Source of the DNA: Candidatus Bathyarchaeia archaeon
GTDB lineage: Archaea > Thermoproteota > Bathyarchaeia > Bathyarchaeales > Bathycorpusculaceae
Direction: 5' to 3'
Assembly: GCA_049512075.1 (NCBI GenBank)
Contig: JBEKXL010000005.1
Coordinates: 32,001-96,000, forward strand
Length of the DNA: 64,000 nt
Part shown: positions 11,562 through 51,579 of the stretch, one piece after another
How the letters are laid out: each line of letters begins with the position of its first letter
How positions within the stretch are numbered: the stretch's first letter is position 1
Position numbers and translations under genes: made by a program
The notes under the pieces: generated by a model
Databases searched by the model: none
Told to the model about the DNA's origin: nothing
What the model saw: only the letters and a program-made list of their open reading frames with translations

Positions 11562-12458
11562 TCAGGCGGGTGGATTCATTTCCTTCAGCAGGTTTTCAAG
11601 GGTCTTCCTTCCTTCCCTGTCCAATGGCAATGCTGGTTTTCGAGGGTAGCCTCCTGCTAGTCCCTGCAGCCTCATAGCCTCTTTTATTGCTGCGATTTGA
11701 TTGAAACGTTTCACAAGTACCTCGTTTGCGAAGGATATGCAGTTTTGCAGTCTGCTTGCTTCTTCGTATCGCCTGTTCTTGAAAGCCTCGTATAAGTGGC
11801 TGCACAGGGCGGGGAACACGTTTCCGACCGCTAGCACTGCGCCTCTCCCCCCTGTTAGCAGCGTGGACAGCGCTACGTCAGCCGTTCCAGCCAGAACTGA
11901 AATTTTGTCACCTGTTAACCTCACGGTTTCCGTTATCGTGCCGATGTTTCCGCTGCTGTCTTTGATGCCGATTATCCTTTCGTTTTCCGCCGCGAGTTCT
12001 TGAATCTGGGGTGGTTCTAAAGAGACGCCGGTGAACTTGGGAACGTTGTAGACGACGATGGGAATGTCGACAGCTTCTGAGACTGTTCGATAGTGTTCGT
12101 GGATTTCCTTGTTTGACAGTTTAAAGTAGAACGGTGTTACTACAAGTGCGGCGTCGACGCCGAGATCACCCGCGTCCTTGGTGAAGGTGACCGTCTCTTG
12201 GGTGCTCATGCTGCCCGTGCCAGCAATCACGGGAACCTTTCCATTAACCTCATCCAAGATGGTCTCAATCACCTTTATCCTCTCTTGCCTAGAAAGGTAA
12301 GGGGCTTCACCGTTGCTGCCACACGGCGCCAACCCCGAGACTCCGCCTTCCAACCAAAATCCCACGCACGCCCTGAGCGCCTTAACGTCAAGTCGACCCA
12401 TACGTGTGAACGGTGTGACGCTGGGGACAAACATTCCATCAAGGACGAGCCTAGGCAT
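11562..12458 (-). CDS. DHDPS/NAL-family class I aldolase (GSNGE, HOGA/KDG-aldolase-like)
   Basis: TPF, CGSNGE, YNVP, IKDSSG Schiff-base Lys. Confidence 0.85.
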   Translation of the reverse strand: MPRLVLDGMFVPSVTPFTRMGRLDVKALRACVGFWLEGGVSGLAPCGSNGEAPYLSRQERIKVIETILDEVNGKVPVIAGTGSMSTQETVTFTKDAGDLGVDAALVVTPFYFKLSNKEIHEHYRTVSEAVDIPIVVYNVPKFTGVSLEPPQIQELAAENERIIGIKDSSGNIGTITETVRLTGDKISVLAGTADVALSTLLTGGRGAVLAVGNVFPALCSHLYEAFKNRRYEEASRLQNCISFANEVLVKRFNQIAAIKEAMRLQGLAGGYPRKPALPLDREGRKTLENLLKEMNPPA

Positions 12459-12679
12459 ACTCTTTCTACTCAGAACCTAACATTTAAAAATTGTCATATA
12501 CGCCTACAACCATAGCGCACACCAAACCCAGCGTGCCATGTGATGCTAAATCTGTCTTGGTTACGTGAATAGAACAGTTTTGTAGGCGTATTTTATGACG
12601 TCAAGGTGTCGGAGAGGCTGGCACTAAATATTAATTCTTGAAGATTCCAATTCTATGGAGCAATGGAGTAAGTAAATCA

Positions 12680-14008
12680 GTGAAATCATTAATCGTCAAA
12701 GGAAAATATGTCTTAACGCTGGACAGAGAGTACAGAACAATCCAACAGGGAGCCGTTTTCGTAGAAGGCGACAAAATTCTGGACGTTGGACCTGCAAAAA
12801 AAATCGAAAGCTCTTACAGCGCTGATGAAATCATTGATGCTAAAGAATGCGTAGTGATGCCGGGACTGATTTGCAGCCACAATCACATGTACGGCGTTCT
12901 TTCGCACGGCATACCCGTTTCCCAGACAACGTCAACTTTCATAGCCTTTCTGAAGAAGTTCTGGTGGCCCCGCATTGAAAATGCTTTGAACAAAGAACAG
13001 ATAAGCGCCGCTGCTTCTATGTCCTCAATTCAAATGGTGAAAACGGGAACAACGTGTTGCGCCGACGTTTTGGAGGCTCCAAACTCGATTCCAGGAGCTC
13101 TGGAGGTTGAGGCTCAAGCGACTGAAATGGTAGGTTTGCGTTCCGTGCTGAGCTTCGAGGCCACTGAAAGAATAAGCGAAGAGAACGGGTGGAAGGGGGC
13201 TGAAGAAAACCTCAACTTCATAAAAATGTATAACAGAAAAAACGATTCATTGACAAAGGGTATGTTTTGCACGCACACCACGTTCACTTGTAGCCCGCAG
13301 TTTCTGAGGAAGGTGAGAGACCTCGCCAACGAATATCCGACAGGAATACACCTTCACTTGGAAGAAGGCGCCTATGAATCAAAGTATTGCCTCACGAAGT
13401 ATGGGAAACTTCCGGTTGAGCTTTACGAAAAAATAGGTTTCCTAGGCTCCGACGTTCTGGCATCTCAATGCGTGCACACGCTTCCAAAAGAAATCAAACT
13501 ATTACGGAAACACGATGTCAAGATTTCGCACATGCCTCTAAGCAACTGTGAAGTCGGCGGTGGCATAGCGCCTGTTCCAAGTTTTCTGCAAGCGGGTCTT
13601 ACAGTCGGACTTGGAACGGACGGATATATCCAAGACATGTTTGAAGTGATGCGAGTCGCATTCCTCATACATAAAGGAAACCTCCAAGACGCCAGCGTCA
13701 TGCCTGCCGAAGCTGTTATTAGAATGGCCACAGTTGACGCTGCAAAAGCGATCCGCATGGAAAACCTCGTGGGCTCAATAACCCCCAAAAAACAAGCCGA
13801 CATCATAACGGTAGACTTGGAATCTCCAACGCCAGTAACAGCGGAAAACCTGATTCCACAACTCGTCGTCTTTGGCGAGGGGAAAATGGTTCAGGATGTC
13901 CTGATAAACGGCAAGAAAATAATGAGAAACAGAAAAATACTCACCATGAATGAAGATATGGCAAGGACGAAGTGTAGAGAAGCTGCAGAGAGTCTGTGGA
14001 ATACCTGA
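12680..14008 (+). CDS. SsnA-like metal-dependent amidohydrolase
   Basis: PGLICSHNHMY (SsnA-type CSHNH), HLHLEEG, GTDGYIQDMFE; GTG 12680 follows a GGAG SD. Confidence 0.8.
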   Translation: MKSLIVKGKYVLTLDREYRTIQQGAVFVEGDKILDVGPAKKIESSYSADEIIDAKECVVMPGLICSHNHMYGVLSHGIPVSQTTSTFIAFLKKFWWPRIENALNKEQISAAASMSSIQMVKTGTTCCADVLEAPNSIPGALEVEAQATEMVGLRSVLSFEATERISEENGWKGAEENLNFIKMYNRKNDSLTKGMFCTHTTFTCSPQFLRKVRDLANEYPTGIHLHLEEGAYESKYCLTKYGKLPVELYEKIGFLGSDVLASQCVHTLPKEIKLLRKHDVKISHMPLSNCEVGGGIAPVPSFLQAGLTVGLGTDGYIQDMFEVMRVAFLIHKGNLQDASVMPAEAVIRMATVDAAKAIRMENLVGSITPKKQADIITVDLESPTPVTAENLIPQLVVFGEGKMVQDVLINGKKIMRNRKILTMNEDMARTKCREAAESLWNT

Positions 14009-14016
14009 TTGAGCGA

Positions 14017-15120
14017 ATGGTGATGGTAAGAACGGTTCGAACGTCACTTTCATTGTGCGGAGTAAGTTTGTCAAACCCTCTGATTCTCGCCGCGGGACCG
14101 TACGGACGCGACGGCAAGACCTTGGAACGCGCGGTGAGGGCAGGTTTTGGCGCAGTTACGACAAAAACGATTAGGCTTGTTGCGGCCAGAAACCCTTTCC
14201 CTAACATGGCCCGGATAGGCAGGGACGCGCTGATTAACGCTGAGAAATGGTCTGACCTTCCTCTTCAAACGTGGGTTACGCACGAGATACCTGCGGTGAA
14301 GCATCTTGGGGTGCCGGTGATCGCCAGCATCGGGTTCACAGAGAAAGAAGCTGGAAAAATCGCTCCGCTGGTTGAAGAGGCTGGCGCTGACTTCATCGAA
14401 ACTGTCACTTACGACGCGGATCAGGTTTTGCCGACGGTTAAAGCCGCCAAGTCCGGAGCGAAAGTTCCTGTGATAGCTAAGGTAAGCGCGAATTGGCCGG
14501 ATTTCCTGAGAATAGCGGTCAAAGCTGAGAAGTTTGGTGCCGACGCCGTTTCAGCGATAGACTCTGTGGGTCCCGTGTTGGCGATAGATGTTGAAACTGG
14601 AAAACCCTTTCTTGGCAATGCGAACGGCGAAGGATGGCTTTCCGGGTCCGCTATTCACCCAATGGCCGTGAGATGCGTTGCCGAAATAGCCAAGCGAGTG
14701 AAGATACCAGTAATAGGTATAGGCGGGATTTCAAACAGTCAAGACGCTGTTGAGATGATGATGGCAGGCGCCCATTGTGTTGAACTGTGCACCGCCCCCG
14801 TCCTCCATGGACTGCAAATCGTCAATCGCATAAAGAACGAGCTTGTCGAATTCATGGAACTGAAGGGCTACAAGTCCATTCAGGAGCTGCGCGGAATCAC
14901 GCTAAAACATCTGGAGAAACAGAAAGAAGAAAGCAAGAGAAGACTACATCCACAGATCGATCGTGAAGCCTGCACTTCATGCGGACTTTGCGCAAATCTC
15001 TGTCCATATCAGGCATTGGCTTTGAGCGAGGGAAAAGTAATCTCATACAAATTAGACTGTCTCAGCTGCGGTCTATGCTATTCCGTTTGTCCTCGGCACG
15101 CCATAAAACTCAGGAGCTGA
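14017..15120 (+). CDS. Dihydroorotate/dihydropyrimidine dehydrogenase-like FMN protein with 2x4Fe-4S ferredoxin
   Basis: NPLILAAGP, VTTKTI, GWLSG, IGIGGI; CTSCGLCANLCP and CLSCGLCYSVCP. Lacks the NxSCP catalytic loop. Confidence 0.8.
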   Translation: MVMVRTVRTSLSLCGVSLSNPLILAAGPYGRDGKTLERAVRAGFGAVTTKTIRLVAARNPFPNMARIGRDALINAEKWSDLPLQTWVTHEIPAVKHLGVPVIASIGFTEKEAGKIAPLVEEAGADFIETVTYDADQVLPTVKAAKSGAKVPVIAKVSANWPDFLRIAVKAEKFGADAVSAIDSVGPVLAIDVETGKPFLGNANGEGWLSGSAIHPMAVRCVAEIAKRVKIPVIGIGGISNSQDAVEMMMAGAHCVELCTAPVLHGLQIVNRIKNELVEFMELKGYKSIQELRGITLKHLEKQKEESKRRLHPQIDREACTSCGLCANLCPYQALALSEGKVISYKLDCLSCGLCYSVCPRHAIKLRS

Positions 15121-17066
15121 ACCGCATCACACTCAAATACAAGGGGTACATGGGGAAAATCCTCCGAATAGATTTGACGGCAAGAAGGATACACAAGCAA
15201 GACTTACGGAATGAGGATGCCGAGAAGTTTCTAGGCGGCACAGGGTTCTGCACGAACATTCTTTACGATGAGACTGGCCCAGAAACGAACCCCCTTGGAC
15301 CAGAAAACCGCCTAATATTCGCAGTCGGCCCCCTATCAGCCACAACGTGGCCAGAGTCAGGAAGATACGAAGTTGGCGGCAAGAGTCCGCTCACCAACAT
15401 TCTTGGAGGAGCAAATTCTGGAGGAAGCTTCGGACCTGAAATGAAACGGGTCGGCTACGACGCCATTATTTTCCAAGGTCGTGCGTCCAAACCGGTCTAC
15501 GTCTACATAGAAGATGGAGAGGTCAAGATATTAGACGCAAGAAACCTTTGGGGAAAAGACACTGAGGAAACCATGACAATAATAAGCCAAGACCATGGTC
15601 AGAAAACTCAAGTAGCTTGCATAGGCCAAGGTGGAGAGAACCTTGTGCGTTACGCGGGAATAGTCACGGACCGTTTCCGCCTTGCAGCTCGGTCGGGCTT
15701 GGGGGCAGTCATGGGTTCCAAGAATCTGAAAGCCCTCGCTTTGAAAGGAAGTCTTCGTGTAGAAGTTGCGGACCCAGAGCGTTTCACTGAGCTTGTCGCC
15801 GAGGCAGATAAGAGAATCAAAGCAGACCCTTTTGTGCCCGAAGTCAGAAAGTACGGTACGACGATTCTTGTCGGAGCAATGAACGAGATCGGAAGGTTTC
15901 CGACCAGGAACTTCCAGACAGGAGTTTTTCCCGCGGCTGACAAGATCAGTGGCGAAGTGCTTGTTGAGAAATATAAAATAGCGGACAAGGCATGCTTCGG
16001 TTGCAGGCTTGCATGCAAGAACGTCATCAGAGTCAAGAAAGGCCGCTTCAAGGGAATGACACTGGATCATCCCGAATACGAAACGATATGTGCCTTCGGA
16101 GGCCGAATCGGAAACGACGATCTCGATTCGATAATTGAGGCGCACGTTCTCTGCAACCTCTACGGCATCGACACCATTTCAACCGGCGGCGTAATAGCGT
16201 TCATGATGGAACTATACGAGAAAAGAATAATCAGCGAAGCAGACACAGGAGGCATTGCTTTCAGGTGGGGAGACAAAGACCTGGCTCTGGACCTGATACG
16301 CAAGATCGCATACCGAGAGGGCATAGGCGACCTTCTGGCCGAGGGAACCAAGAGAGTTGCAGAGCGGCTTGATCGCGGTGCGGAAAAATACGCCATGCAC
16401 GTTAAAGGAATGGACATTCCCGCTCAGGATGGCAGAGCACAGAAATCGATGGGGCTGGCACACGCAGTCTCCACAAGAGGGGCAGATCATCTGCGCGCCT
16501 CGGCTTTTCTGGACGAAATAGGTTTTGAAGAGGCTGTGAAGAAACGTTTTGGCAAACGCTATCTGCCCGAAATGGCAAACAGGCTGGACGAAACATACAA
16601 GGGAGTGATGGTTAAGGAGTGTGAAGACTTTGCAGCCGTCGTGAGCTCGCTAGGTCTCTGCTTGACTGGAGGGTATGCGTACCCGCCAATCTTCTATTTC
16701 AAGGATCTCGCAGAAGCCGTCAGAGCCGCAACAGGGATGGAAGCCACTGAGAAATTCTTGCGGACAGCCGGAGAACGCATAGTCAATCTCCAGAGAGCAT
16801 ACAACATTCGCGAAGGCTTGTCTCGGAAAGACGATAAACTGCCGGCGAGGTTTACCGAAGAACCGAGTCCGGACGGGCCGTGCAAGGGACAAAAAGTGAA
16901 ACTCGAAATGATGCTGGACGAGTATTATCAGACACGCGGATGGGACGTCAAAACTGGTCTAATCCCCCGAGAGAAACTGGAACAACTCAACCTGAAGAAC
17001 GTTGCAGACGATCTTGGCAGAAGGGGGAAGCTTCCAATGAGGAATAGGAAAACTCATGGTGGGTAG
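15117..17066 (+). CDS. Aldehyde:ferredoxin oxidoreductase family (W/Mo-bis-pterin) enzyme 1
   Basis: YKGYMGKILRIDL, KSPLT, GLGAVMGSKNLKA, CFGCRLAC, PEYET, RGADHL. Start placed at CTG overlapping the upstream TGA. Confidence 0.92.
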   Translation: MNRITLKYKGYMGKILRIDLTARRIHKQDLRNEDAEKFLGGTGFCTNILYDETGPETNPLGPENRLIFAVGPLSATTWPESGRYEVGGKSPLTNILGGANSGGSFGPEMKRVGYDAIIFQGRASKPVYVYIEDGEVKILDARNLWGKDTEETMTIISQDHGQKTQVACIGQGGENLVRYAGIVTDRFRLAARSGLGAVMGSKNLKALALKGSLRVEVADPERFTELVAEADKRIKADPFVPEVRKYGTTILVGAMNEIGRFPTRNFQTGVFPAADKISGEVLVEKYKIADKACFGCRLACKNVIRVKKGRFKGMTLDHPEYETICAFGGRIGNDDLDSIIEAHVLCNLYGIDTISTGGVIAFMMELYEKRIISEADTGGIAFRWGDKDLALDLIRKIAYREGIGDLLAEGTKRVAERLDRGAEKYAMHVKGMDIPAQDGRAQKSMGLAHAVSTRGADHLRASAFLDEIGFEEAVKKRFGKRYLPEMANRLDETYKGVMVKECEDFAAVVSSLGLCLTGGYAYPPIFYFKDLAEAVRAATGMEATEKFLRTAGERIVNLQRAYNIREGLSRKDDKLPARFTEEPSPDGPCKGQKVKLEMMLDEYYQTRGWDVKTGLIPREKLEQLNLKNVADDLGRRGKLPMRNRKTHGG

Positions 17067-18916
17067 GCGTTGCAGGCTTTCAGCCCGAGTTCTTTGAGCT
17101 TTTCTTTTCGGGGGGTTCCCTGCTTGGACCATCCCCTAAGACGGTAGTATTTCGAGAGCATCCTGTCCAGTTCGACTGTGCTTCCTTCGAGTGGTTCTTT
17201 GAGGAACCTCTGGGGTAGCTGATCGTCCTTTCGAGAGAACCCCTCTCGTACGTTGAAGCATCGTTCCAGGTTGACGATTCTTTCTCCACAGTTCAAGAGT
17301 TCTTCTTCGGTGAAATTCTCTCCTGTCAACGCTGTGAGGGCTTTTGCAAAATCTGAAGGCATGAAAACGTAGGTTTCGGTCGTGGTGAATTTGCAGACGC
17401 CTAAGGCGTCCGTGATTGCGCAATAGTTTTCAGTGAAAACTACAATTTCAGGCTTGTACGTTGGGTTCCTCGTGTCCAAGATCTTTTCCAAAGGCTTTCG
17501 GGGGAAGAGCTGCTTCGCAACTTCCGTTTTTCGTGCAGAGTCAATCGTTGGCAGAGCGTAGAGGTGATCTGCACCGCGGTTAGATACGGCGTGGCCCAAG
17601 CCGAAGGCTTTCAGAGTTCTCGACTCCTGTCTCGGTATCTCCATTCTCTTAACGTGCATCGCAAACCTGCTTGCCTGTCCGCCTATTCTCTCAGATGCTC
17701 TCGCCGTGCCTTCCGCCAAGACATCGCCGAATCCCTTGCGATGGGCAATCATCCGGATGAGTTCCAGCGTGCTTTCAGCGTTACCCCATTCTAGGGGGAG
17801 TCCCGTTTCCTCCTTGGATATCAAACCCTTTTCGTAGAGTTCCATCGCGAAGGACACTGTCACGCCGGTTGAGATGGTGTCCAACCCCAGTTCATTGCAA
17901 AGCTGGTTGGCCTTCATGATCACGCTGAAATCTGCAATCCAGCACATCGGCCCGAAAGAGTCTATGCTTTCGTACTCTGGTCTCGAGCCCTCCAGAGGCG
18001 CGTATTTCCCTTCCGTGACTCTTGCGTATGCTCGACAGTGGATGGGACATGAGTAACATGTTTCTGGTTTGAGGAAATATCTCTCCCTTATCGTTTCTCC
18101 TGAAATCTGTTCAGCCCATGGAAACCTGGCGATCTGATGGTTCTTGGCTGGAAGGTCTCCTGTCTCATTCTTCGTGGCAATAAGCCACGGCGTGCCATAA
18201 TTGCACAGGCCTTTCAGTTGTGGGTTCTGAGGAGACCAGCTTTTGAGAGCAGCCGTGCATAACTCGCGGAATTTTTCAGGATATGCGGCCTCAACCTTGT
18301 CTTTTCCGGTCACTGCCACTGCTTTCAAGTTTTTGGAACCCATAACCGCTCCCAGTCCACATCTGCCAGCTACTCTGTCCCTGTCGGTTATGATTGAGGC
18401 TATTCGAACCAAGTTCTCGCCCGCCGGTCCTATGCAGGCAACACGGCACTTACCTATTTCTTCCTGAACTGCCTTTATCGCCTCGCTCGTTGTCCTCCCC
18501 CAGATGTGTGCGGCTGACTTCAACGTCGCAGTTTCGTTTTCAACGTGCAGATACGCGGGGTTTCTTGCTTTTCCTGATATGTGTATCAGGTCGTACCCAG
18601 CGAATTTCAGCTCTGGACCGAAGTAACCGCCAGCATGGGCGTACCCTAAACCGTTTGTGAGTGGCGATTTTGCTGCCACTGTTATTCTTGAAGAAGTCGG
18701 CCACATGGTTCCAGCTAGTGGTCCTGCGGAAAAGAGCAGGATGTTTTCAGGTGAAAACGGGTCTGTTTTTTCTTTCAGCTCTTCGAAAAGGTAGTACGAA
18801 GTTAGGCCACGTCCACCCAAGAACTTCTTCAGCATTGGCTTTTCAAGGCTATATTTTTGAACTTCGCCTGAAGTCAAGTCTACGTTTAGTGCTTTTCCCG
18901 TCCAACCGGATGTCAC
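17054..18916 (-). CDS. Aldehyde:ferredoxin oxidoreductase family enzyme 2
   Basis: GWTGKAL, KSPLT, GLGAVMGSKNLKA, CYSCPIHC, PEYES, RGADHL. Confidence 0.92.
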   Translation of the reverse strand: MTSGWTGKALNVDLTSGEVQKYSLEKPMLKKFLGGRGLTSYYLFEELKEKTDPFSPENILLFSAGPLAGTMWPTSSRITVAAKSPLTNGLGYAHAGGYFGPELKFAGYDLIHISGKARNPAYLHVENETATLKSAAHIWGRTTSEAIKAVQEEIGKCRVACIGPAGENLVRIASIITDRDRVAGRCGLGAVMGSKNLKAVAVTGKDKVEAAYPEKFRELCTAALKSWSPQNPQLKGLCNYGTPWLIATKNETGDLPAKNHQIARFPWAEQISGETIRERYFLKPETCYSCPIHCRAYARVTEGKYAPLEGSRPEYESIDSFGPMCWIADFSVIMKANQLCNELGLDTISTGVTVSFAMELYEKGLISKEETGLPLEWGNAESTLELIRMIAHRKGFGDVLAEGTARASERIGGQASRFAMHVKRMEIPRQESRTLKAFGLGHAVSNRGADHLYALPTIDSARKTEVAKQLFPRKPLEKILDTRNPTYKPEIVVFTENYCAITDALGVCKFTTTETYVFMPSDFAKALTALTGENFTEEELLNCGERIVNLERCFNVREGFSRKDDQLPQRFLKEPLEGSTVELDRMLSKYYRLRGWSKQGTPRKEKLKELGLKACNAYPP

Positions 18917-19010
18917 GATTGTTGATACTCCCGAACGTGTTATTTATCAATGCGTTTTGCCAGAGATAAGTTTGCTTACGGAAAAAGGCAAAATGCCGGC
19001 TTTCAATATA

Positions 19011-21042: not shown

Positions 21043-21142
21043 ACTGGCCAGGCAACTGACCTTGCAATCGTTGCATATGGGAAGTGAACCGATCTTTTTA
21101 ATACACGACTGTCCAAGAAGGTTTGGGAACGCGATTAAGACT

Positions 21143-22636: not shown

Positions 22637-22644
22637 CGGAGGGC

Positions 22645-23640: not shown

Positions 23641-23753
23641 GCTGTCGATTTTGCGCCCTTTTTGCGCCAGAAACCCCGATTCGACGACCACGGCGTGCCG
23701 CCTAACAGGATATATACCTTCATGTTTATTGTTATGCGCGAGAGGCAAGGGAC

Positions 23754-24782: not shown

Positions 24783-24786
24783 CTCA

Positions 24787-25596: not shown

Positions 25597-25676
25597 AAGG
25601 GTTTGTAGAAAGAACAGCAGAGTGCCAGGTCGTCTCGGAGCGGGAAGCCAGTCTTGCAAGTCCGTGCGCTCGCTTT

Positions 25677-27161: not shown

Positions 27162-27335
27162 AGGCGAACCTCGTTTCAAACTCAGCCCTCTATCTACACG
27201 CGCGTCTTCACGCGTGTTTGAATTGCGTCTGTGATCCTTCATAAATATTGTCATACATCAAACACACTCTTCCGATAGGCTCAGAACGGCATTCTCTGAG
27301 TTGAAAAAGTATTATTAGTGACTCATTAACCTTGG

Positions 27336-29239: not shown

Positions 29240-29293
29240 CTATTTTCACACGTTGTTTAGCTTTTGTTGGTAACCATGATTCTTTTCTGTTTC

Positions 29294-30301: not shown

Positions 30302-30311
30302 GTTGAATTCA

Positions 30312-32383: not shown

Positions 32384-32550
32384 AATCTCGAAGAGGACTA
32401 ATCACATAGCCCTATTTTAAAAGCTTATCCTCCGTTCCACGGTTTTGAAGTTAGCGAATGCCAGGCATCTACGGGTCAGCTTGACTGGTGCGCAAAGAAT
32501 AAAAGATGTGCCAAATGAAGATATTCTCTAAGATGCTAGAAGGAAACGGC

Positions 32551-36675: not shown

Positions 36676-36682
36676 TTTAGCC

Positions 36683-40797: not shown

Positions 40798-40837
40798 TTT
40801 CTGTTCTCCTCCAATTTTCAAAGATCATCCTTCGTTT

Positions 40838-41818: not shown

Positions 41819-41829
41819 TTCACCCCTGC

Positions 41830-42786: not shown

Positions 42787-42879
42787 CCAAGATCATCTCG
42801 CCTAACTTTCAGGGGTATCAAGCGCTCTGCCTTAACATAACTGTTATGGAGAAACTGCAGATTCTATCAGGTCCAAGTT

Positions 42880-43818: not shown

Positions 43819-43943
43819 GTGCTTTTTCACCTATACGCTGAGGGGTAAGTTGTAGGAATATTCATTGTCCTATAAATATGAGCGCGTCTTCTTCAAGTAC
43901 CGACGGTTTTGTCACGCGTACTGTGCATCAGGTTCGACCGCGT

Positions 43944-44981: not shown

Positions 44982-45109
44982 CTTTACCGCCCAACAAAGG
45001 ATTGAGAGCGTTCTAGTTTTGTGAAATTCCGCCAACGCTAAGAGCGCGTTAATGGTTTTATAGGCTGTCAGGGTATTTTAGTTTTGTTTTAAGGGAGAGC
45101 AAAGCCGAG

Positions 45110-46363
45110 TTAGTCTTTGTTGATGGACTCGAACTCTTTGAGATCGGGTTTTATCGTAGGGGCTTTCATAGACTGGTTTATCACCGCTTCTGGATCCTTC
45201 AGTCCGCTTCCTGTTATCAGCACAACCACCGTCTCATCTTTTTTCACCATGTCTAGACTGACGAGTTTGACGAGGCCGGCGAGAGACGCGACGCCTGTGG
45301 GTTCTGCGAATATCCCCTCAGTCGAAGCCAGAAGGCCCTGTGACTCCAGTATCTCTTTGTCAGAGACTGCCTCAGCCGTTCCGCCTGTTTCTCTCAACGC
45401 AACTAAAGCAGCATCTCCGTCCCATGGGAATACATCTGAAAGGCCGCCTGCAATCGTTGTGGGGCGGTCCCAAGGTTCTATTTCAAACGGACCCCTGTTC
45501 TGTTTGAAGGCTCTGACCAGCGGGGCGCAGCCCTCAGGTTGTATCGCAGCGAGTTTTGATGTGGGCTCTATGAAGCCAAGGTTTTGGAAGTCGTTGAAGC
45601 CTTTCCAAATTCCAGCTAGGAGGCATCCCGAGCCCGTGGGCACTATTACCCAGTCCGGTGTGTTCCAGTCGAGCTGTTCGATGATTTCATACGCCATCGT
45701 CTTTGGGCCTTCGACTTGGTAAGGGTTGAACGGGCCGAAGCTGGGGCATGGATACCATCCGTATTTGTCAACGACCATCTGAAGCATTTGCACTGTGGGA
45801 TCTTTGCCTTTTTCGGCAGCTTTCAACCGTGTGACTTTTGTTCCGTAGAGGCGGATTTGAGCAAGCTTGACTTCAGGCGCGGATTCTAGGACGAAAGCGT
45901 AGCATTTCAATCCTGCCTTTGCAGAGTGAGCGGCGAGGGCTGCGGCAGCGTTGCCGCTTGACGCTGTGGCGGTCGTGTCAACGCCAAACTCGACGGCTTT
46001 CGAAACCCCGACAGTCATCGATCGGTCCTTGAAGGAGCCGGTGGGGCTTCGAGTCTCATCTTTGAGGTAGAGGTTTCTGAGTCCGAGTTTCCAGGCAAGT
46101 TTGGTTGCTTTTATGAGTGGTGTTCCTCCAGCATCGAGGGTGACAATGTTTTTCTTGTTTTTGATTGGAAGAAGCTCGTAGTATTTCCAAACGTTTGAGG
46201 CTCTTCGGCTGAGGGTTGGTTTATCTACTCTTTCTGCTATGGCCGAATAGTCGTAGTATATGTCAAGGCGCCCTCTGTCCTTGTTGAGGCACATGCACAC
46301 CTTTTCATCGGCTGAGTATTCTCGTCCACAGCGAGCACATTTCATTTTCGCGACGAAGGCCAA
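45110..46363 (-). CDS. Threonine synthase-like PLP enzyme
   Basis: N-terminal CxxC, PTGSFKDR, ASSGN, EGPKTMAYE, PTGSG, TGSGLK. Confidence 0.88.
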   Translation of the reverse strand: MAFVAKMKCARCGREYSADEKVCMCLNKDRGRLDIYYDYSAIAERVDKPTLSRRASNVWKYYELLPIKNKKNIVTLDAGGTPLIKATKLAWKLGLRNLYLKDETRSPTGSFKDRSMTVGVSKAVEFGVDTTATASSGNAAAALAAHSAKAGLKCYAFVLESAPEVKLAQIRLYGTKVTRLKAAEKGKDPTVQMLQMVVDKYGWYPCPSFGPFNPYQVEGPKTMAYEIIEQLDWNTPDWVIVPTGSGCLLAGIWKGFNDFQNLGFIEPTSKLAAIQPEGCAPLVRAFKQNRGPFEIEPWDRPTTIAGGLSDVFPWDGDAALVALRETGGTAEAVSDKEILESQGLLASTEGIFAEPTGVASLAGLVKLVSLDMVKKDETVVVLITGSGLKDPEAVINQSMKAPTIKPDLKEFESINKD

Positions 46364-46395
46364 TCACAACACCAGCACATGCGTCCTTGACTGTT

Positions 46396-47862
46396 TTATG
46401 GCAAGGCGACTTTCTCGTTGAACTGATTGATTAGTTCATCTATCTTGGGTACTAGTTTCTGGTTCTCGGCCCAGTATAAGTCATAATCGTACCATTGACT
46501 GTTCAGTTCGGGGAGACTGAACATTTGCTGCTCTATCCATGTGAAGTATTTCAGGTGATGTATTCGTTTGCGGTCGTAATGCGTGAGTTCCATCATCGAA
46601 TCAGTCTTCACGGCCATCAGGTGCCTGTGGAAATCTCGGATCGCATCTTTCTCATGGTATTCGCCGTTTCGTTCTTGCGCCTCTCGCAGGCGGGATTGAT
46701 ACAGTTCCATCGAGTCCGTAAACACCGTCAGCACAACATCCTTGCGGGTGAGCTCGTAGTATTTTGCGAATTTTATTGACATGAGCACGTTGGCTATGCT
46801 GGAAATGCCCAGCAGGTCAAGCTTAGAAACCAGCTCCTCGGGAACGCCGACCTCTTTTGTTAGATATCTGCGTCCTGCAGGCTCGTTGAACAGTCTCATC
46901 AAGCTGAGCGGGTCGTCATCGTCAATTCCAATGGCGACGTCCGTGTTTCTCACGTTGTGAATCCAGGGAACATGCTTGTCGCCTATGCCTTCTATTCTGT
47001 GAGCACCGTACCCATTGAGCAGAAGCGTAGGACACTGAAGAGCTTCTCCAGCAGCGATCTTTGAAGCGGGGTACACTTGCTTCAAGTAGTCGCCGCACGC
47101 AATCGTCCCTGCTGATCCGGTTGTTAGGCATACGCCTTGAAATCCGCCTCCTCCAAGCTCCTTTTTGAGGACCTCGTCCATCGCGTGTCCTGTAACGTCA
47201 TAATGGAACAGGTAGTTGCCGAACTCGCTGAACTGGTTGAAAACGAAAATGTCTTTTCTTGTTCGCTTGAGCTCCCACACCTTGTCGTATATCTCTTTCA
47301 CGTTGCTCTCGCTTCCGGGTGTGGCAATTATCTCACCTGCCACGGTCTTCAGCCATTCAAATCGTTCCCTGGACATTTGCTCGGGAAGAATCGCAATGCT
47401 GTCGCATCCGAGAAGCGTCGCATCGTAGGCGCCTCCTCTGCAAAAGTTCCCAGTGCTGGGCCATACTGCCTTATGCCTTGTGGGATCGAACTGGCCTGTC
47501 ACAAGCGGGGGAACCAGACAACCGAAAGTCGCGCCTACCTTGTGTGACCCTGTTGGAAACCACTTCCCGACTAGGGCGATTATTCTCGCCTCAACGCCGG
47601 TGAGTTCCGACGGCAACTCTATATAATTGGCTGCGGACCGAAACAACCCGCCGCTGGGTACAGGGTCGTTCTTCCAAATGATTCTGAACAGGTTTTGAGG
47701 GGCAACGTCCCAGAGCCCTGTGTTCCTAAGCTGTTCCTTGATTGCACTCGGCGCGGTGTTGGGGTTCTTTAGCTGAGCAAAGGTGGGAACCACTATCTTC
47801 CTTTCTCTGCACCTCTGAACTGTTCTCTCAAGCTGCTCTTCGTTCATCGTGAGATCTATCAA
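46396..47862 (-). CDS. Fold-type II PLP-dependent lyase of ygeW-associated clusters
   Basis: FPTGSHKVGA, WPSTGNFCRGG, TGSAGT, HRIEGIGDKH. Confidence 0.8.
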   Translation of the reverse strand: MIDLTMNEEQLERTVQRCRERKIVVPTFAQLKNPNTAPSAIKEQLRNTGLWDVAPQNLFRIIWKNDPVPSGGLFRSAANYIELPSELTGVEARIIALVGKWFPTGSHKVGATFGCLVPPLVTGQFDPTRHKAVWPSTGNFCRGGAYDATLLGCDSIAILPEQMSRERFEWLKTVAGEIIATPGSESNVKEIYDKVWELKRTRKDIFVFNQFSEFGNYLFHYDVTGHAMDEVLKKELGGGGFQGVCLTTGSAGTIACGDYLKQVYPASKIAAGEALQCPTLLLNGYGAHRIEGIGDKHVPWIHNVRNTDVAIGIDDDDPLSLMRLFNEPAGRRYLTKEVGVPEELVSKLDLLGISSIANVLMSIKFAKYYELTRKDVVLTVFTDSMELYQSRLREAQERNGEYHEKDAIRDFHRHLMAVKTDSMMELTHYDRKRIHHLKYFTWIEQQMFSLPELNSQWYDYDLYWAENQKLVPKIDELINQFNEKVALP

Positions 47863-47942
47863 TTATACCGCCCTTCGTCCTTTCTGAAGAGATAAAACTT
47901 ATAAATCCACCTACTGTTTTTCCTCAACCCAAGGTGTACGAA

Positions 47943-48995
47943 ATGAAGCCATACATTGGAGCTTTTAAGGGAAAAGATTGGCTCGAGACACAATCCTGGA
48001 GCCAAGAAGATCTTAAGCTGCTCATAACGGCCTCCAAGGACTTGAAGCAGAAGTACAAAGCAAGAAAATCCACAGCTGAAATTCTCCGCGACCGCACGCT
48101 GTTCATGATTTTCTTCAATCGCTCACTGCGGACGAGAAACAGTTTTGAAGCCGGCATGACTCAACTGGGCGGGCATGCTCATTTCCTTTCGCCCCAAGAC
48201 ATTTACGTCCCTGCTTTGCCCGAGGATGAAGAGGCTTACAAGACGGAGCGGATCGCTGACGTGGCCCGCGTACTTGACGAGATGGGAGACGCTATCGCCA
48301 TCAGAATTTACGGTGATGCTGCCAAGTGGATGTATGGACGCGGACATCGCACCGTTGAAGAGTTTGCCAAGTGGGCAAAGATTCCGGTCATCAACATGGA
48401 AGATGATGTTTATCATCCCTGTCAAGAAATGGCTGACATTCAGGCTGTAGACGAACACGTTGGCAAGTTCCAGGGTAAGAAGTTCGTTATGTCGTGGGCT
48501 TTCAGCGAAGGATTAAAACCGCTTGCAGTACCTCAGAGCTGTGTCTTGATAGCTTCGAAAATGGGTATGGACGTCGTCTTTGCCAGGCCTAAGGGCTTTG
48601 AACTTGATGATAGGATCATTGAATGGGCTAAAGATAACGCGGACAGGTATGGGGGCAGCTTCTCGGAGACGGATAACATGGAAGAGGCTTTTGAAGGGGC
48701 ACACGTGGTCTATCCTAAAAGCTGGACTGCGAGGGCTGCACTGCCAGGACCATGGGGAGGCCCAGCTCAACCGGACAAACAACTGGCGTTAGAGTACGCT
48801 AGGAAGAACAAATCTTGGATTTGCGATCAGGCGAAGATGGATTTGACAGCCAAGGCCATTTACATGCACTGCCTGCCCGCAGACCGCGGGATGGAAGTGA
48901 CCGACGAAGTCATCGACGGACCTCAAAGCGTCGCGTTCGACGAAGCCGGAAACCGATTGCACGCCCAAAAAGCAATAATGGCCGCGATCATGTAA
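47943..48995 (+). CDS. Transcarbamylase, YgeW-like, paralog B
   Basis: SLRT, HPCQ, MSWAFSEGLKPLAVPQS, VYPKSW, MHCLPADRG. Confidence 0.87.
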   Translation: MKPYIGAFKGKDWLETQSWSQEDLKLLITASKDLKQKYKARKSTAEILRDRTLFMIFFNRSLRTRNSFEAGMTQLGGHAHFLSPQDIYVPALPEDEEAYKTERIADVARVLDEMGDAIAIRIYGDAAKWMYGRGHRTVEEFAKWAKIPVINMEDDVYHPCQEMADIQAVDEHVGKFQGKKFVMSWAFSEGLKPLAVPQSCVLIASKMGMDVVFARPKGFELDDRIIEWAKDNADRYGGSFSETDNMEEAFEGAHVVYPKSWTARAALPGPWGGPAQPDKQLALEYARKNKSWICDQAKMDLTAKAIYMHCLPADRGMEVTDEVIDGPQSVAFDEAGNRLHAQKAIMAAIM

Positions 48996-49032
48996 CAAAG
49001 GCAGCTGAACTAGGATTCACTCTTCAACACTT

Positions 49033-50121
49033 TCACTTTTTCCTCAACGGTTTCTTGACTTTCTCAAAGCGTTCGGCCATTGCCTCAAACAAGTTCTCCA
49101 CGCCGAACCTCTGGACATCAGTTGCGGGCAAATTCGTTTCCTTTTCGGCTTGCCTTATGGCCGCCCTGATTTCTTCATCCGACTTCAAACCGTTGTAATT
49201 GTAAATATAGCTAATTGCAATTCCAACAACCTTGGTCCTGGGGCACAACGTTTCAATCAAACGTATTTCCTCTTTGAGACTTGGTACTTTCATTGTTGGA
49301 AAGCCGTCCCGTGTTCCTCTGAATGGATCGTGAACCATTATGACAGCGTCAGGCTGAGAACCGTAGAGTATCGCCAGGGTTTCAACTCCGTAGGCTGGGT
49401 GAGAGAGTGAAGCCTGTCCTTCAACGATGATTAGGTCCTTTCCCATCTTCGCAACGTCAGCAGTCATTTTGGCCACGGTTCCAGGTATGAAGTCTCCGGG
49501 AATGGCGTCTATGGCTGCGCCAGCGTCGCCTCTTACCAGCATCATCGTCTGCCCTGTTGCTACGGCGCCGACGTTCAAGCCTCTTTTTTCGGCCTCTTTC
49601 ACGAGTTCCATCATGACTATGTTCTTGCCAGTGGCAGCATCGGTGGCGAGGATTGCCACGACAGGCACTTTGATGTTTAATACTTCCATGAGTACTTCAA
49701 GATTCTTAGGAGGTTTTCTTAGATCGATCAATTTGACTCCATGCTGCTTTGCAAGGTCACTGAATTCCGGCTGGTCACCGAAGAAATAGTGCAGCCCACT
49801 CACGATGTCCAACCCGTTCTTGATAGCTTCTTTGATGATGCTCTTCCACTCTTCTGGAAGACTGCCTCCAGGCGGAGCGATTCCGATGATTAAGGCGTCT
49901 GGCTTGTACTTCAATGCTTCTTTAAGGCCTCCGACGATGGATATTTTCTTCTTGCCTATTCCTAAGACTTCTCCGGCGTCTTTTCCTGCTTTCTTCTCAT
50001 CAATTACCGCTACGATTTTGTATTTGCCCCCGTATATCACGAGGTCGTTGGCAGTTTTTCCTTCAAGAGTGCCAAACGCTTTGCTTGCAAGAATTATCGC
50101 AGTTTTGAGATTTTCAGGCAC
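49033..50121 (-). CDS. DUF1611-family P-loop protein (DgcN-like)
   Basis: GKTA, GIAPPGG.LP, IVSGLH, TDAATGK, ATGQT, VEGQASLSHPAY. Confidence 0.82.
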   Translation of the reverse strand: MPENLKTAIILASKAFGTLEGKTANDLVIYGGKYKIVAVIDEKKAGKDAGEVLGIGKKKISIVGGLKEALKYKPDALIIGIAPPGGSLPEEWKSIIKEAIKNGLDIVSGLHYFFGDQPEFSDLAKQHGVKLIDLRKPPKNLEVLMEVLNIKVPVVAILATDAATGKNIVMMELVKEAEKRGLNVGAVATGQTMMLVRGDAGAAIDAIPGDFIPGTVAKMTADVAKMGKDLIIVEGQASLSHPAYGVETLAILYGSQPDAVIMVHDPFRGTRDGFPTMKVPSLKEEIRLIETLCPRTKVVGIAISYIYNYNGLKSDEEIRAAIRQAEKETNLPATDVQRFGVENLFEAMAERFEKVKKPLRKK

Positions 50122-50217
50122 GTATACAGCATCTCTTTTTTTAAGCCTTCACCGCCTTACTAAAATATAACTTTATTCATTGACAATTGATGTTTGCAGA
50201 CTAGGGGTTCTGGGGAA

Positions 50218-51579
50218 ATGACTGTAGATCTTTTGCTGAAGGGAGGAAAAATAGCGACATCGACTGGCGTCACCGAGGCTGACATAGCGGTGGACCAGGG
50301 AAAGATTGTTGCCATCTCGAAAGAAACCAATCTGCCCAAGGCTGACAAGGTGCTGAATGTGGGCGGGCTTTTCGTGCTGCCCGGAATTATTGACGCCCAT
50401 GTGCACGTGTGCGATCCAGGGTTCATCCGTGAAAGCTTCAGGACAGGCACGGCGGCTGCGGCTGCGGGCGGAGTGACAACCATAATCGACATGGCCTCCT
50501 CCGCGCAGCTTCGCACTTCCTCGGTGGCAATGTTGAACAGGAAAAAGGAGATGGCTCAAAAGGAATCTTTCGTGGACTTCGGCCTGTACGGAGGGGAAAT
50601 CGCTGATGAGAAGGACTTGGTGGAAATAGGAGACTTGGTTAGGGCAGGTGTGGTCGGTTTCGGCGAAATAATGATGTGCGGCGACATGCCTGTCAAGAAC
50701 GACGAGATACTGTTTGAGGCTTTCAGGTTGATTTCAAAGGCGAAGTCAGTAGCGGCTGTGCATGCTGAGGACAACTCCGTGCTGACCGATATGAAGGAGC
50801 GGATGGTGTCTAAGGGAAGGAAAGACGTGATGGCGTTTGCCGACTCGCGGCCCAGCGAGGCGGAGGCGCAGGCCATAGCCAAGGCCTTGATCTTGTCTAG
50901 GAAGGTGAATGTGAGTCTTCATGTGTGTCACTTGTCAACAAGGGAAGGCGTGAGCTTGATTCAGGCAGCAAAGGCCCGAGGCTTGCACGTCACGACGGAA
51001 GTTTGTCCGCATCATCTGTTTTTCACGAGAGACTCGTACAGTGAACTGGGCCCCTGCATCGTTACTACTCCACCTCTACGGACAAAATATGACGCACATG
51101 CGCTTTGGAACGGTCTGTATGATGGAACCGTAGACTTAGTTGTGTCTGATCATTGTGCCTTTAAGAAGAAAGAAAAGGACGTGGGTTTGCAAGACGTTTG
51201 GAAAACTCCGCCAGGGGTACCCGGACTCGAAACGCTTGCTCTAGTGATGCTGGGAAAGGGAGTTAAAGAGGGAAAGATTTCGCTTGAAAGATTCGTCAAG
51301 GCTTCCTCTGAAAACCCGGCTAAACTCTTCGGGCTGTATCCGAAGAAGGGCGTTTTGCAGCAGGGCGCTGACGCAGACATCGTGGTTTTTGACTTTCACA
51401 AGCAGCACAGGATCAAGGCTGAGGATATGAAGTGCGTCGCCGACTACACGCCCTACGAAGGGTGGGTGGTGGCTGCAGAGCATGCTGTGACGTTGGTTCG
51501 GGGACGAATCGTCGCGAAAGAGGGCGAGGTTGTGGGAAAAATGGGGTATGGCGCTTTCGTGAAGCCTTCATTAAGGTGA
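50218..51579 (+). CDS. Cyclic amidohydrolase (hydantoinase/allantoinase/dihydroorotase family)
   Basis: PGIIDAHVH, AAAGGVTTIIDM, HAED, HLS, EVCPHHL, PPLR, SDH, GADAD. Confidence 0.9.
   Translation: MTVDLLLKGGKIATSTGVTEADIAVDQGKIVAISKETNLPKADKVLNVGGLFVLPGIIDAHVHVCDPGFIRESFRTGTAAAAAGGVTTIIDMASSAQLRTSSVAMLNRKKEMAQKESFVDFGLYGGEIADEKDLVEIGDLVRAGVVGFGEIMMCGDMPVKNDEILFEAFRLISKAKSVAAVHAEDNSVLTDMKERMVSKGRKDVMAFADSRPSEAEAQAIAKALILSRKVNVSLHVCHLSTREGVSLIQAAKARGLHVTTEVCPHHLFFTRDSYSELGPCIVTTPPLRTKYDAHALWNGLYDGTVDLVVSDHCAFKKKEKDVGLQDVWKTPPGVPGLETLALVMLGKGVKEGKISLERFVKASSENPAKLFGLYPKKGVLQQGADADIVVFDFHKQHRIKAEDMKCVADYTPYEGWVVAAEHAVTLVRGRIVAKEGEVVGKMGYGAFVKPSLR

Follow-up and report, generated by a model that had tools for sequence, protein, structure and literature searches.

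The 64,000 nucleotides of DNA analysed here (the window, G000:C5:32001-96000) come from a Candidatus Bathyarchaeia archaeon whose genome, G000, is 99.76% complete, and they hold, at ~12519-51671, an accessory block of ~39.15 kb that sits between dapA and a gene for tRNA-Val. We are inclined, with some reserve, to see in that block a pathway that would ferment an N-heterocycle of two rings and purine type, likeliest imported as a riboside or with a pentose, a reading that draws on gene families and on the company that the genes keep here and in relatives. The block is strain-variable and modular, and chance alone does not account for its genes standing side by side, since its parts recur together in unrelated lineages. 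Pathways of this type have been known, in bacteria, since 2025; new would be an archaeal, Xdh-free form with an aldehyde:ferredoxin oxidoreductase (AOR) beside the reductase and two carbamoyltransferases, joined to a clade of Ftr-like and Mch proteins and to a pentose module.

Bathyarchaeia are among the most abundant uncultured archaea of anoxic soils and sediments, and their substrates are still debated. No publication on ssnA in Bathyarchaeia was found, in a search that lay outside the supplementary gene-cluster tables of the 2025 papers, and the one paper found to touch on both Bathyarchaeia and purine degradation ascribes allantoin use to Atribacteria. Gene families were assigned by Pfam and NCBIfam scans of the long open reading frames (ORFs) in 11562-51579, and these scans bore out all the gene classes that an earlier, sequence-only reading had listed there, from the ABC importer and the amidohydrolases to the carbamoyltransferases, the sugar kinases and the one-carbon enzymes.

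Likeness to the bacterial reductive urate pathway

In the bacterial reductive urate route, as described in excerpts of PMC12507026, XdhD reduces urate to 2,8-dioxopurine and YgfK then reduces the ring, a step that in C. difficile is done by UacX, a ferredoxin-type PF01180 enzyme. Ring opening by SsnA gives ureidomethyl-hydantoin and HyuA makes of it 2,3-diureidopropionate, after which YgeW with phosphate, or UacY, leads to albizziin, YgeY to diaminopropionate and YgeX to pyruvate. The genes stand in E. coli as ygeW-ygeX-ygeY-hyuA-yqeA...ygfK-ssnA-ygfM-xdhD; the same excerpts describe the UacX/UacY variant of C. difficile and a Chloroflexota variant in which a luciferase-family gene replaces YgfK/UacX, give YqeA as the carbamate kinase of the cluster, and restrict their network survey to bacteria. 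A role of YqeA in ATP formation we infer from a portion of the companion preprint (10.1101/2025.04.24.650524).

The block is divided here into set A (12638-20027), set B (20077-42786) and set C (42880-51579), because one genus mate, G003, separates set C from the rest. By similarity of the gene products, most steps of the bacterial pathway have a counterpart in set A or set C. Set A comprises:

12638-14008, forward: SsnA-like amidohydrolase; its top two NCBIfam matches are SsnA models, at 345.9 bits (cut-off 444) and 330.5 bits (cut-off 455.5)
13996-15120, forward: UacX/PreA-like flavin mononucleotide (FMN) reductase with a C-terminal 2x[4Fe-4S] part; PF01180 and Fer4 families, PreA model 204.3 against a cut-off of 335
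14979-17066, forward: AOR1, a tungsten-type AOR; AFOR_N, AFOR_C
17054-18916, reverse: AOR2; AFOR_N, AFOR_C; 45% identical to AOR1
19011-20027, reverse: Mer-like member of the luciferase-like, F420-type oxidoreductases (LLM); PF00296, Mer models 256.5 and 259.3 against cut-offs of 276 and 348.7

Set C comprises:

42880-43830, reverse: carbamate kinase; TIGR00746 394.7 against a cut-off of 358.25; 50% identical to E. coli YqeA
43944-45035, reverse: carbamoyltransferase 1 (CT1); OTCace_N, OTCace; below every NCBIfam cut-off
45110-46363, reverse: threonine-synthase-like (ThrC-like) pyridoxal phosphate (PLP) enzyme; NF006050 350.8 against a cut-off of 303; nearest structures are solved threonine synthases
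46396-47862, reverse: CysK-like PLP enzyme of 488 aa; PALP 43.5 bits; cysteine synthases at most 61 bits
47934-48995, forward: carbamoyltransferase 2 (CT2); N-acetylornithine carbamoyltransferase model 304.7 against a cut-off of 288
49033-50121, reverse: DUF1611 protein, DgcN-like; PF07755, PF17396; DgcN model 186.7 against a cut-off of 480
50194-51579, forward: hydantoinase/dihydropyrimidinase-like cyclic amidohydrolase (HyuA-like); TIGR02033 368.2 against a cut-off of 393.25

When the E. coli K-12 cluster was translated and searched against G000 by tblastn (E<=1e-5), SsnA, HyuA, YgeW and YqeA each had its best match inside the block, at 28%, 31%, 31% and 50% identity respectively, that of SsnA being 12638-14008 (165 bits) and that of HyuA 50194-51579 (211 bits). 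XdhA, XdhB, XdhC, XdhD, YgfM, YgeX (DpaL) and the purine permeases had no match in G000 in that search, so that the absence of Xdh, which the sequence-only reading had remarked on for the window, extends to the genome.

The likeness to the bacterial urate cluster would lie in an SsnA-like hydrolase by a reductase, a hydantoinase-like enzyme that may make a second opening, a carbamoyltransferase with a carbamate kinase, a PLP enzyme of the PALP fold and, as in the Chloroflexota variant, a luciferase-family gene nearby; the reductase resembles UacX in joining PF01180 to Fe-S domains, a likeness of described architecture and not of UacX sequence. Carbamate kinase alone passes the cut-off of its namesake model. 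Unlike the bacterial cluster, this one is archaeal, is without Xdh/XdhD/YgfM, and has tungsten AORs beside the reductase, a second carbamoyltransferase in the place of YgeY, which is itself missing, and the ThrC-like and CysK-like enzymes in the place of YgeX; it also shares its block with set B, which brings an ABC importer, the pentose kinases, three Mch paralogs, the Ftr-like one and an E1/E2 complex.

The SsnA-like gene, the UacX/PreA-like flavoprotein gene and that for AOR1 form one operon, 12638-17066 (+), with a 13-base overlap between the end of the first and the start of the second; the true start of AOR1 is probably near 15120-15150. In the flavoprotein eight Cys are invariant across 6 aligned orthologues. 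A search of genome contigs with the SsnA-like protein found three close relatives (Candidatus Bathyarchaeia archaeon) and one weak bacterial match, and the Mer-like LLM has no paralog elsewhere in G000.

What would the AORs do in such company? By similarity AOR1 is a typical AOR, its nearest solved structure being that of P. furiosus (1aor) at 488 bits against 232 bits for BamB, and on that account the AORs may be assigned the supply of electrons to the ferredoxin-type reductase and not a hydroxylation. The same scores led us to down-weight the ideas that they stand in for an Xdh-type hydroxylase or act as a BamB-type ring reductase. Around matches in relatives, stretches were fetched that are given L-numbers below, and gene contents refer to those stretches. 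Every UacX-like gene seen, counted in relatives at >=150 bits, shares its stretch with an AOR (the window, L029, L030, L043, L067); the two are ~7 kb apart in L030 and elsewhere adjacent or a few genes off, often with a small ferredoxin gene between. An AOR thus accompanies the ferredoxin-type reductase instead of substituting for it, a second ground for down-weighting those two ideas. It is an LLM-type neighbour that accompanies Xdh instead, in L026, L060 and L077.

For set C the names proposed by the sequence-only reading need amendment. It had called the carbamoyltransferases YgeW-type, but the YgeW models give CT1 and CT2 150-161 bits against cut-offs of 453 and 500 (for CT2, 159 and 150 respectively), and the best models are those for N-acetylornithine and ornithine carbamoyltransferase. 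The nearest solved structure to CT1 is the ornithine carbamoyltransferase of P. furiosus, and for CT1 the structures of ornithine and N-acetylornithine carbamoyltransferases outscore the YgeW structures 3q98 and 2yfk. CT1 has orthologues of 54-71% identity in 20 other genomes of the class. The supposed PLP lyases are, by score, threonine-synthase-like and distantly CysK-like, not DpaL-like. The CysK-like enzyme has a 79% orthologue by a carbamoyltransferase cluster in L079, and its look-alikes in a protein atlas are unnamed bacterial proteins of ~490 aa.

Recurrence of the gene sets

Among 301 Bathyarchaeia genomes, an SsnA-like match of >=298 bits, a cut-off chosen after a gap down to 260 bits had been seen (the deaminase paralog of the block scores 238), occurs in 23, and a CT1 orthologue at E<=1e-70 in 21. 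Both are present in 19 genomes, the SsnA-like gene alone in 4, CT1 alone in 2 and neither in 276. Twenty SsnA-like loci were fetched out of 26 places at >=298 bits outside G000, and in 15 of them a HyuA-like gene is adjacent; those without it are L027, L029, L039, L040 and L025, whose stretch ends at the SsnA-like gene.

The sequence-only reading had named synteny in relatives beforehand as a point on which it might fail, and it did not fail there. In G100, which belongs to another family, sets A and C are fused in one compact cluster of ~20 kb that has among its genes two deaminase-like genes, an AOR with ferredoxin, SsnA-like, HyuA-like and carbamate kinase genes, CT2 (54%), CT1 (68%), a ThrC-like gene (68%) and a UacX-like gene with a PreT/YgfK-like partner. 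Interleaved with that cluster (G100:C1; L030:2299-7117, L047:847-3640) are three MtmB-family genes, a corrinoid (B12-binding) protein gene and one for a URO-D/MtaA-like methyltransferase, which may serve demethylation of N-methylated heterocycles into the same pathway.

In G188, XdhA, or XdhBCA with YqeB, flank the SsnA-like/HyuA-like pair at 2 loci, one of which runs XdhA, SsnA-like, LLM, HyuA-like; Xdh genes also flank the SsnA-like gene in L060. By gene context, such neighbours point to purine-type substrates. The 12 carbamoyltransferase loci include a carbamate kinase gene in 9, a deaminase-like gene in 8, both carbamoyltransferases in 7, a ThrC-like gene by CT1 in 7, a CysK-like gene in 4, an AOR in 2 (both in G283) and Xdh in 1; HyuA-like and DUF1611 genes are found in none of the 12.

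Two distant metagenome lineages have set A next to set B. L067 runs binding protein, permeases, Ftr-like, Mch, AOR, AOR, SsnA-like, UacX-like, deaminase-like, with a metallophosphoesterase gene adjoining that of the binding protein; L060 runs SsnA-like, LLM, XdhB/C/A, binding protein, permeases, Ftr-like, SDR (short-chain dehydrogenase), Mch3, and has in addition genes for ribose-1,5-bisphosphate (R15P) isomerase (389 against a cut-off of 314.1), type III RuBisCO (591.8 against 497.45), a PRPP-synthetase-like protein and a PfkB kinase. In the lineage of L063-L065, where Ftr-like identity is down to 39%, set B, with M19, E2/LplA, DUF2193 and kinases, holds together, and the extras are an ADP-ribosylglycohydrolase-family gene, an MFS transporter gene and a purple-acid-phosphatase-like gene, with a class-III aminotransferase gene in L065. 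The isomerase and RuBisCO of L060 would fit nucleoside ribose, and the neighbours in L060, L063-L065 and L067 together would fit ribosides released from nucleic acids. Proteins with ParB_N and HTH_ParB, which may be regulators, are encoded inside two unrelated heterocycle clusters (L030:16079-16828, L060:5363-6334).

Importer, sugar and one-carbon genes of the block

Set B comprises:

20077-21042, forward: Mch paralog 1 (Mch1), first gene of the kinase operon; TIGR03120 283.4 against a cut-off of 228.8
21035-22636, forward: FGGY kinase, xylulokinase-like; XylB model 377.9 against a cut-off of 380.25
22645-23640, forward: ribokinase (PfkB family); TIGR02152 335.9 against a cut-off of 299.65
23754-24782, forward: Zn-dependent alcohol/polyol dehydrogenase (Zn-ADH); ADH_N, ADH_zinc_N; all NCBIfam matches below cut-offs
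24787-25596, forward: DeoC/DhnA-type class I aldolase of 269 aa; PF01791 167.3 bits, NF005556 270.4 against a cut-off of 241
25677-27254, reverse: DUF2193 protein; PF09959 441.8 bits
27336-28127, forward: SDR; adh_short_C2
28145-29239, reverse: ABC ATPase, MalK/UgpC-like; ABC_tran, TOBE_2, OB_MalK; UgpC model 424.2 against a cut-off of 432
29294-30361, reverse: Mch paralog 2 (Mch2); TIGR03120 262.5 against 228.8; missing, with the Ftr-like gene, in G003
30312-31316, reverse: Ftr-like protein; FTR, FTR_C; Ftr models 165.6 and 160 against cut-offs of 297 and 292.6
31310-32383, reverse: Mch paralog 3 (Mch3); TIGR03120 191.1, below the cut-off of 228.8; commonest partner of the Ftr-like gene
32506-33897, forward: deaminase-like amidohydrolase (TRZ/ATZ, MtaD/DadD group); best NCBIfam model 460.6 (cut-off 609), 5'-deoxyadenosine deaminase 418.5 (cut-off 522)
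34322-35626, forward: solute-binding protein, SBP_bac_1 (CUT1 type)
35650-36675, forward: ABC permease 1; BPD_transp_1
36629-37537, forward: ABC permease 2; BPD_transp_1
37599-38600, reverse: M19 (renal-dipeptidase family) metallohydrolase; PF01244 293.7 bits; kept in L057 (77%) and L063 (61%)
38790-39593, reverse: LplA lipoate-protein ligase; LplA-B_cat
39586-40821, reverse: E2 dihydrolipoyl acyltransferase; Biotin_lipoyl, E3_binding, 2-oxoacid_dh
40838-41833, reverse: E1 beta; NF006667 393.5 against a cut-off of 321
41830-42786, reverse: E1 alpha, pyruvate-dehydrogenase type; TIGR03182 396.5 against a cut-off of 393.85

Mch1, the two kinases, the Zn-ADH and the aldolase are encoded by one operon, 20077-25596 (+), and the MalK-like ATPase, Mch2, the Ftr-like protein and Mch3 in a row at 28145-32383 (-). 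The deaminase-like amidohydrolase is the sole match of E. coli GuaD in G000. The E2 is the only one found in that genome, where a second E1alpha/E1beta pair (G000:C9:22067-25420; 60-65% identical to that of the island) is followed by a Zn-ADH paralog (42%), with no E2. A 319-aa ORF at 24784-25743(-), antisense to the aldolase gene, has no Pfam family and an odd composition, and was rejected as a gene. DUF2193 occurs in 2 of the 301 genomes; the C-terminus of the island protein reads CX2CX6PX2CX2C, with Pro in place of Asp in the published Fe-S motif of the family, CX2CX6DX2(H/C)X2C, and members of the family bind Fe-S clusters in M. voltae according to parts of PMC12375889.

Mch1 and Mch2 pass the canonical-Mch cut-off of 228.8 and Mch3 does not; the Ftr-like protein fails as canonical Ftr in that it scores below the equivalog cut-offs and groups outside canonical Ftr. 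It keeps a Glu aligned with Glu245 of 1ftr, and the three Mch paralogs, Mch3 included, one aligned with Glu186 of 1qlm, which we take to be the catalytic residues of Ftr and Mch. Compared with the canonical tetrahydromethanopterin (H4MPT) enzymes Ftr, Mch and Mer, the island proteins have the same folds, but the Ftr-like protein, Mch3 and the Mer-like protein fall below cut-offs and the genes belong to operons for transport and sugar use, apart from those of the one-carbon pathway. The only Mch homologue of G000 outside the island, at G000:C18:8-349, is a contig-edge fragment 40-43% identical to Mch2/Mch3, so that the assembly contains the canonical Mch only in part.

At E<=1e-30 the Ftr-like protein matches 23 database clusters, which are 56-97% identical to it; among the 301 class genomes, G000 itself aside, nothing exceeds 37% identity, and among 40 relatives the gene is in G002 only. 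An alignment of 14 Ftr-like sequences drew 22 metagenome loci, two of which, being identical to the window, were set aside; 14 loci, at >=36% identity, are counted as Ftr-like, and L062 and L073, which are short matches, were dropped from the tree. Thirteen of the 14, with the window protein, form one clade on a long branch with 100/100 support, separate from all other Ftr homologues including those of G000 itself on contigs C22 and C2. An Mch-like gene is adjacent in 12 of the 14, the other two being contigs of <2.7 kb. ABC transporter parts are found at 10 of these loci, deaminase-like genes at 8, DUF2193 at 5, PfkB/FGGY kinases at 5, genes for E2, LplA or lipoyl-synthase-like proteins at 4, M19 at 2 and SsnA-like genes at 2, and the grouping of Ftr-like and Mch genes with those for importer, deaminase and kinases is kept across about four metagenome lineages. 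A cluster in G283 (G283:C5; DUF2193, Ftr, Mch, LLM, AOR) was considered as a copy of set B and rejected, its Ftr falling outside the island-type clade.

Borders and variability within the genus

The flanks of the block are:

11562-12458, reverse: dapA (4-hydroxy-tetrahydrodipicolinate synthase); TIGR00674 218.5 bits against a cut-off of 206.15; kept beside the empty site in G001 and G004
51732-51808, reverse: tRNA-Val(TAC), the right flank, found by ARAGORN; 98.75% identical to the G004 junction

Comparison with the genus mates G001-G004, of which G001 is 77% and G004 97% complete, places the borders. In blastn of the junctions, homology on the left stops at 12518 (G004) or 12490 (G001) and on the right resumes at 51672 (G001). 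In these two genomes dapA directly abuts the tRNA-Val region, and DNA searches and tblastn found no island genes there. The block is thus of island type, in the sense that it is missing in close relatives, which have an intact empty site by a tRNA gene. The sequence-only reading had a contiguous run without housekeeping genes begin at dapA: from ~12519 to 51671 that description stands, with zero housekeeping genes, but its leftmost gene, dapA, is the core left flank and lies outside the island.

The tRNA gene lies 150 bases past the last island gene, with its 3' end toward the island. Scans of the island ORFs found no integrase family, and the longest word common to both borders is 9 bases, with no att-like repeat. 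GC content is 49.2% in the island and 47.5% in the genome, and 3% of 39-kb windows are equally high; an argument for horizontal transfer from composition was set aside, this signal being too weak. A 137-aa ORF at 51679-52092(-) overlaps the tRNA gene and was rejected as a gene. Further right, 52381-53635 is low in GC (38-41%) and holds an AsnC-type helix-turn-helix (HTH) gene, a GNAT gene and a ~80-base stretch, 52774-52852, each with many copies across G001-G004.

Within the genus, G000, G002 and G003 carry both set A and set C, neither of which a DNA search found in G001 or G004. G002 is collinear across the block, at ~90-99% protein identity, with two insertions (L012:8072-11661 and L013:18891-19960): 4.7 kb between M19 and LplA, encoding a DDE_Tnp_IS240 transposase and, in three further ORFs, proteins of no clear family, and 2.2 kb that separate dapA from the SsnA-like gene and contain pieces of thermopsin and dockerin. 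In G003 (~83% DNA identity) the counterpart of 12620-42865, minus Mch2 and the Ftr-like gene, adjoins dapA. The deaminase-like protein is 69% identical in G002, where its neighbours are at ~95%, and G003 shows the same for the binding protein and the permeases, at 62-69% identity beside neighbours at 77-94%. That these likely specificity genes diverge at another pace than the genes around them suggests an exchange of cassettes or a rapid divergence in substrate range.

A putative fermentation of a purine-type heterocycle

The steps set out here, like their order and the class of substrate, are read from family membership and gene context. The CUT1-type ABC system would take up the compound and the deaminase-like amidohydrolase strip an amino group from it. 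The UacX/PreA-like FMN/Fe-S enzyme would reduce the ring with low-potential electrons from the neighbouring aldehyde-oxidising AORs, and a possible source of aldehyde is cleavage of pentose phosphate, by way of the kinases and the DhnA-type aldolase. Opening of the six-membered ring would fall to the SsnA-like enzyme and that of the five-membered ring to the hydantoinase-like one; CT1 and CT2 would then phosphorolyse the two ureido groups, for carbamate kinase to make ATP, possibly two per ring system. The ThrC-like and CysK-like PLP enzymes would deaminate the C3 remnant to a 2-oxo acid, which lipoylated E1/E2 would oxidise. The Ftr-like protein and the three Mch paralogs probably process a one-carbon unit that arises in the same catabolism and is bound to H4MPT at the level of formyl or methenyl, and ordinary one-carbon chemistry is suggested because the Glu aligned with the catalytic Glu is kept. 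The sequence-only reading also sent pyruvate to E1/E2 and one-carbon units to H4MPT; these assignments, too, we infer.

There is a precedent by analogy. Clostridial purine fermentation passes through formiminoglycine and then formimino- and methenyl-tetrahydrofolate, a transferase and a cyclo-enzyme bringing formate-level ring carbons to the pterin carrier. The Ftr-like and Mch-like paralogs may be its functional analogues, although the carrier would be H4MPT and the enzymes of Ftr and Mch folds, and no FTCD-type or glycine reductase genes were seen. One can go further and propose that the Ftr-like clade and its Mch partners are an H4MPT counterpart of the clostridial branch, by which C2 and/or C8 of the purine would pass directly, in formyl, formimino or methenyl form, to the archaeal one-carbon pool, and that with AOR-driven UacX-like reduction via ferredoxin and two ATP-yielding carbamoyltransferase steps they would make up a purine or nucleoside fermentation without a molybdenum hydroxylase. 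In that full form the proposal is doubtful, to be entertained rather than expected.

Objections and other readings

Several observations weigh against the purine-type fermentation favoured here. No Xdh-family gene was found in G000, G002, G003 or G283 (PF02738, the molybdenum-cofactor-binding family, was not found in the last three, though it is in G100, with 8 matches, and G188, with 7), and the published bacterial entry step from urate to 2,8-dioxopurine therefore cannot run as published; to our knowledge no other enzymes bring ordinary purines to the 2,8-dioxo state. The absence of YgeY noted by the sequence-only reading holds for the window, with matches of only 22%, on C31 and C9, outside the island. 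The SsnA-like, UacX-like and HyuA-like proteins and CT1 are all below the NCBIfam cut-offs of their namesakes, while mundane names fit two neighbours, CT2 passing the cut-off for N-acetylornithine carbamoyltransferase and the ThrC-like enzyme that for threonine synthase. No E3 in the genome passes its cut-off, the best reaching 339.5 bits against 408.8. Genes for nucleoside hydrolases or phosphorylases are missing from the island, and a search of G000 for PF01156 hydrolases found none. Solved relatives nearest to the binding protein bind xylo-, arabino- and chito-oligosaccharides (E 1e-31 to 1e-10); the sequence-only reading had held that specificity for ordinary oligosaccharides would tell against it, and on that reading relatives at such E values weigh neither way. 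As for recurrence, 16 of the 19 genomes with both markers are from one family, f35, which leaves about four independent lineages; in f35 the carbamoyltransferase cluster is remote from the SsnA-like/HyuA-like pair or on another contig, and in G003 the counterpart of 42873-51465 (carbamate kinase to hydantoinase) is 300 kb away on the same contig.

In the light of these points an archaeal variant for nucleosides or N-heterocycles, as the sequence-only reading had it, keeps the support of the co-occurrence of SsnA-like and CT1 genes and of the ribose genes in L060, but lacks that of an enzyme in the island to part base from sugar. The R15P isomerase and type III RuBisCO genes of L060 are absent from the island, which has ribokinase, a xylulokinase-like kinase, polyol dehydrogenase and a DhnA-type aldolase; elsewhere in G000, homologues of both stand side by side on contig C4, and the genome has three PNP_UDP_1 genes.

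Could it be that nothing but a recombination hot spot beside the tRNA gene has brought these operons together, with no common substrate? The block would then contain an operon for pentose or oligosaccharide uptake with its kinases, a 2-oxo-acid dehydrogenase that depends on lipoate, surplus H4MPT one-carbon enzymes, a pair that opens N-heterocyclic rings and a citrulline- or N-acetylcitrulline-type pathway yielding carbamoyl phosphate. Such accretion is unlikely but a serious contender. It would accommodate the G003 arrangement, with set C far off and Mch2 and the Ftr-like gene missing, the separation of the two clusters in f35, the oligosaccharide binders nearest to the binding protein, the IS-type (insertion sequence) transposase inside the block in G002, and the score of CT2 on the N-acetylornithine carbamoyltransferase model beside a DgcN-like N-acetyltransferase homologue. 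The chief argument against it is that differing pairs of sets adjoin in unrelated lineages (A with C in G100, A with B in L067 and L060, AOR with carbamoyltransferases in G283), to which the cohesion of set B in L063-L065, with M19, E2/LplA, DUF2193 and kinases, at 39% Ftr-like identity may be added; pure accretion is disfavoured because chance would not repeat such combinations. The single catabolic island of the sequence-only reading is upheld to the extent that A/C and A/B adjacency recurs, but as G003 attests it is not a fixed unit.

A pyrimidine (cytosine, uracil or thymine from nucleosides) in place of a purine is improbable, though it has the merit of needing no Xdh, in line with the absence of Xdh. 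After a deaminase, a PydA/PreA-like reductase and the HyuA-like enzyme as dihydropyrimidinase, the two carbamoyltransferases would phosphorolyse N-carbamoyl-beta-alanine and N-carbamoyl-beta-aminoisobutyrate to yield ATP, and the AORs would oxidise malonic semialdehydes and return the electrons to the reductase, so that an AOR by the reductase would balance redox. In keeping with this, the UacX-like protein is best on the PreA model, the HyuA-like one is best on a dihydropyrimidinase/D-hydantoinase model (368.2 against 393.25), and L065 has its class-III aminotransferase. The PreA-like FMN/Fe-S reductase and the dihydropyrimidinase-like hydrolase do recall the reductive pyrimidine pathway (PreT/PreA or PydA, PydB, PydC), but the island differs from that pathway in having neither a PreT-like partner nor a beta-ureidopropionase, with carbamoyltransferases and a kinase instead, and it has no aminotransferase. 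The pair that is most conserved, moreover, is SsnA-like with HyuA-like (15 of 20 loci), and two ring-opening hydrolases suit a substrate of two rings; in G188 and L060 that pair has Xdh genes at its side, and with beta-amino acids there is no part to play for the PALP-fold enzymes conserved by the carbamoyltransferases (7 of 12 loci).

Very improbable is a last alternative, that the island degrades ribityl- or ribosyl-bearing pterin or deazaflavin cofactors of dead cells (methanopterin, F420, lumazines, flavins), with Mch, Ftr-like and Mer-like folds binding H4MPT or F420, the deaminase as pterin deaminase, M19 trimming glutamyl tails, polyol dehydrogenase and kinases taking ribitol or ribose, and sets A and C dismantling the uracil-like ring: operons of sugar use and transport in which three Mch genes, an Ftr-like and a Mer-like one are embedded, a Zn-ADH, SDR, xylulokinase-like kinase and ribokinase that suit a pentitol or pentose, and a Ftr-like clade always with transport or deaminase genes and not with canonical one-carbon genes speak for it, but the retained Glu residues suggest ordinary one-carbon chemistry, and the R15P isomerase, RuBisCO III and PRPP-synthetase-like genes of related loci are typical of nucleoside ribose.

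Implications

According to passages of PMC7269680, a review of necromass fermentation, the purine fermentations known so far yield a single ATP for each purine, and nucleic acids count as a major pool for fermentation. If the purine-type fermentation put forward here is true, the bacterial reductive urate pathway extends to a second domain, and two phosphorolytic ureido cleavages suggest a higher ATP yield. An AOR by the reductase, in place of Xdh, would be a bypass of the molybdenum/selenium hydroxylase. The clade of Ftr-like and Mch-like proteins tied to transport and ring-cleavage genes is by itself a lead at the level of the family. For archaea as abundant in anoxic soils and sediments as these, the reading would also offer specific tests, of enzymes and of substrates, that could help to culture or trace them.

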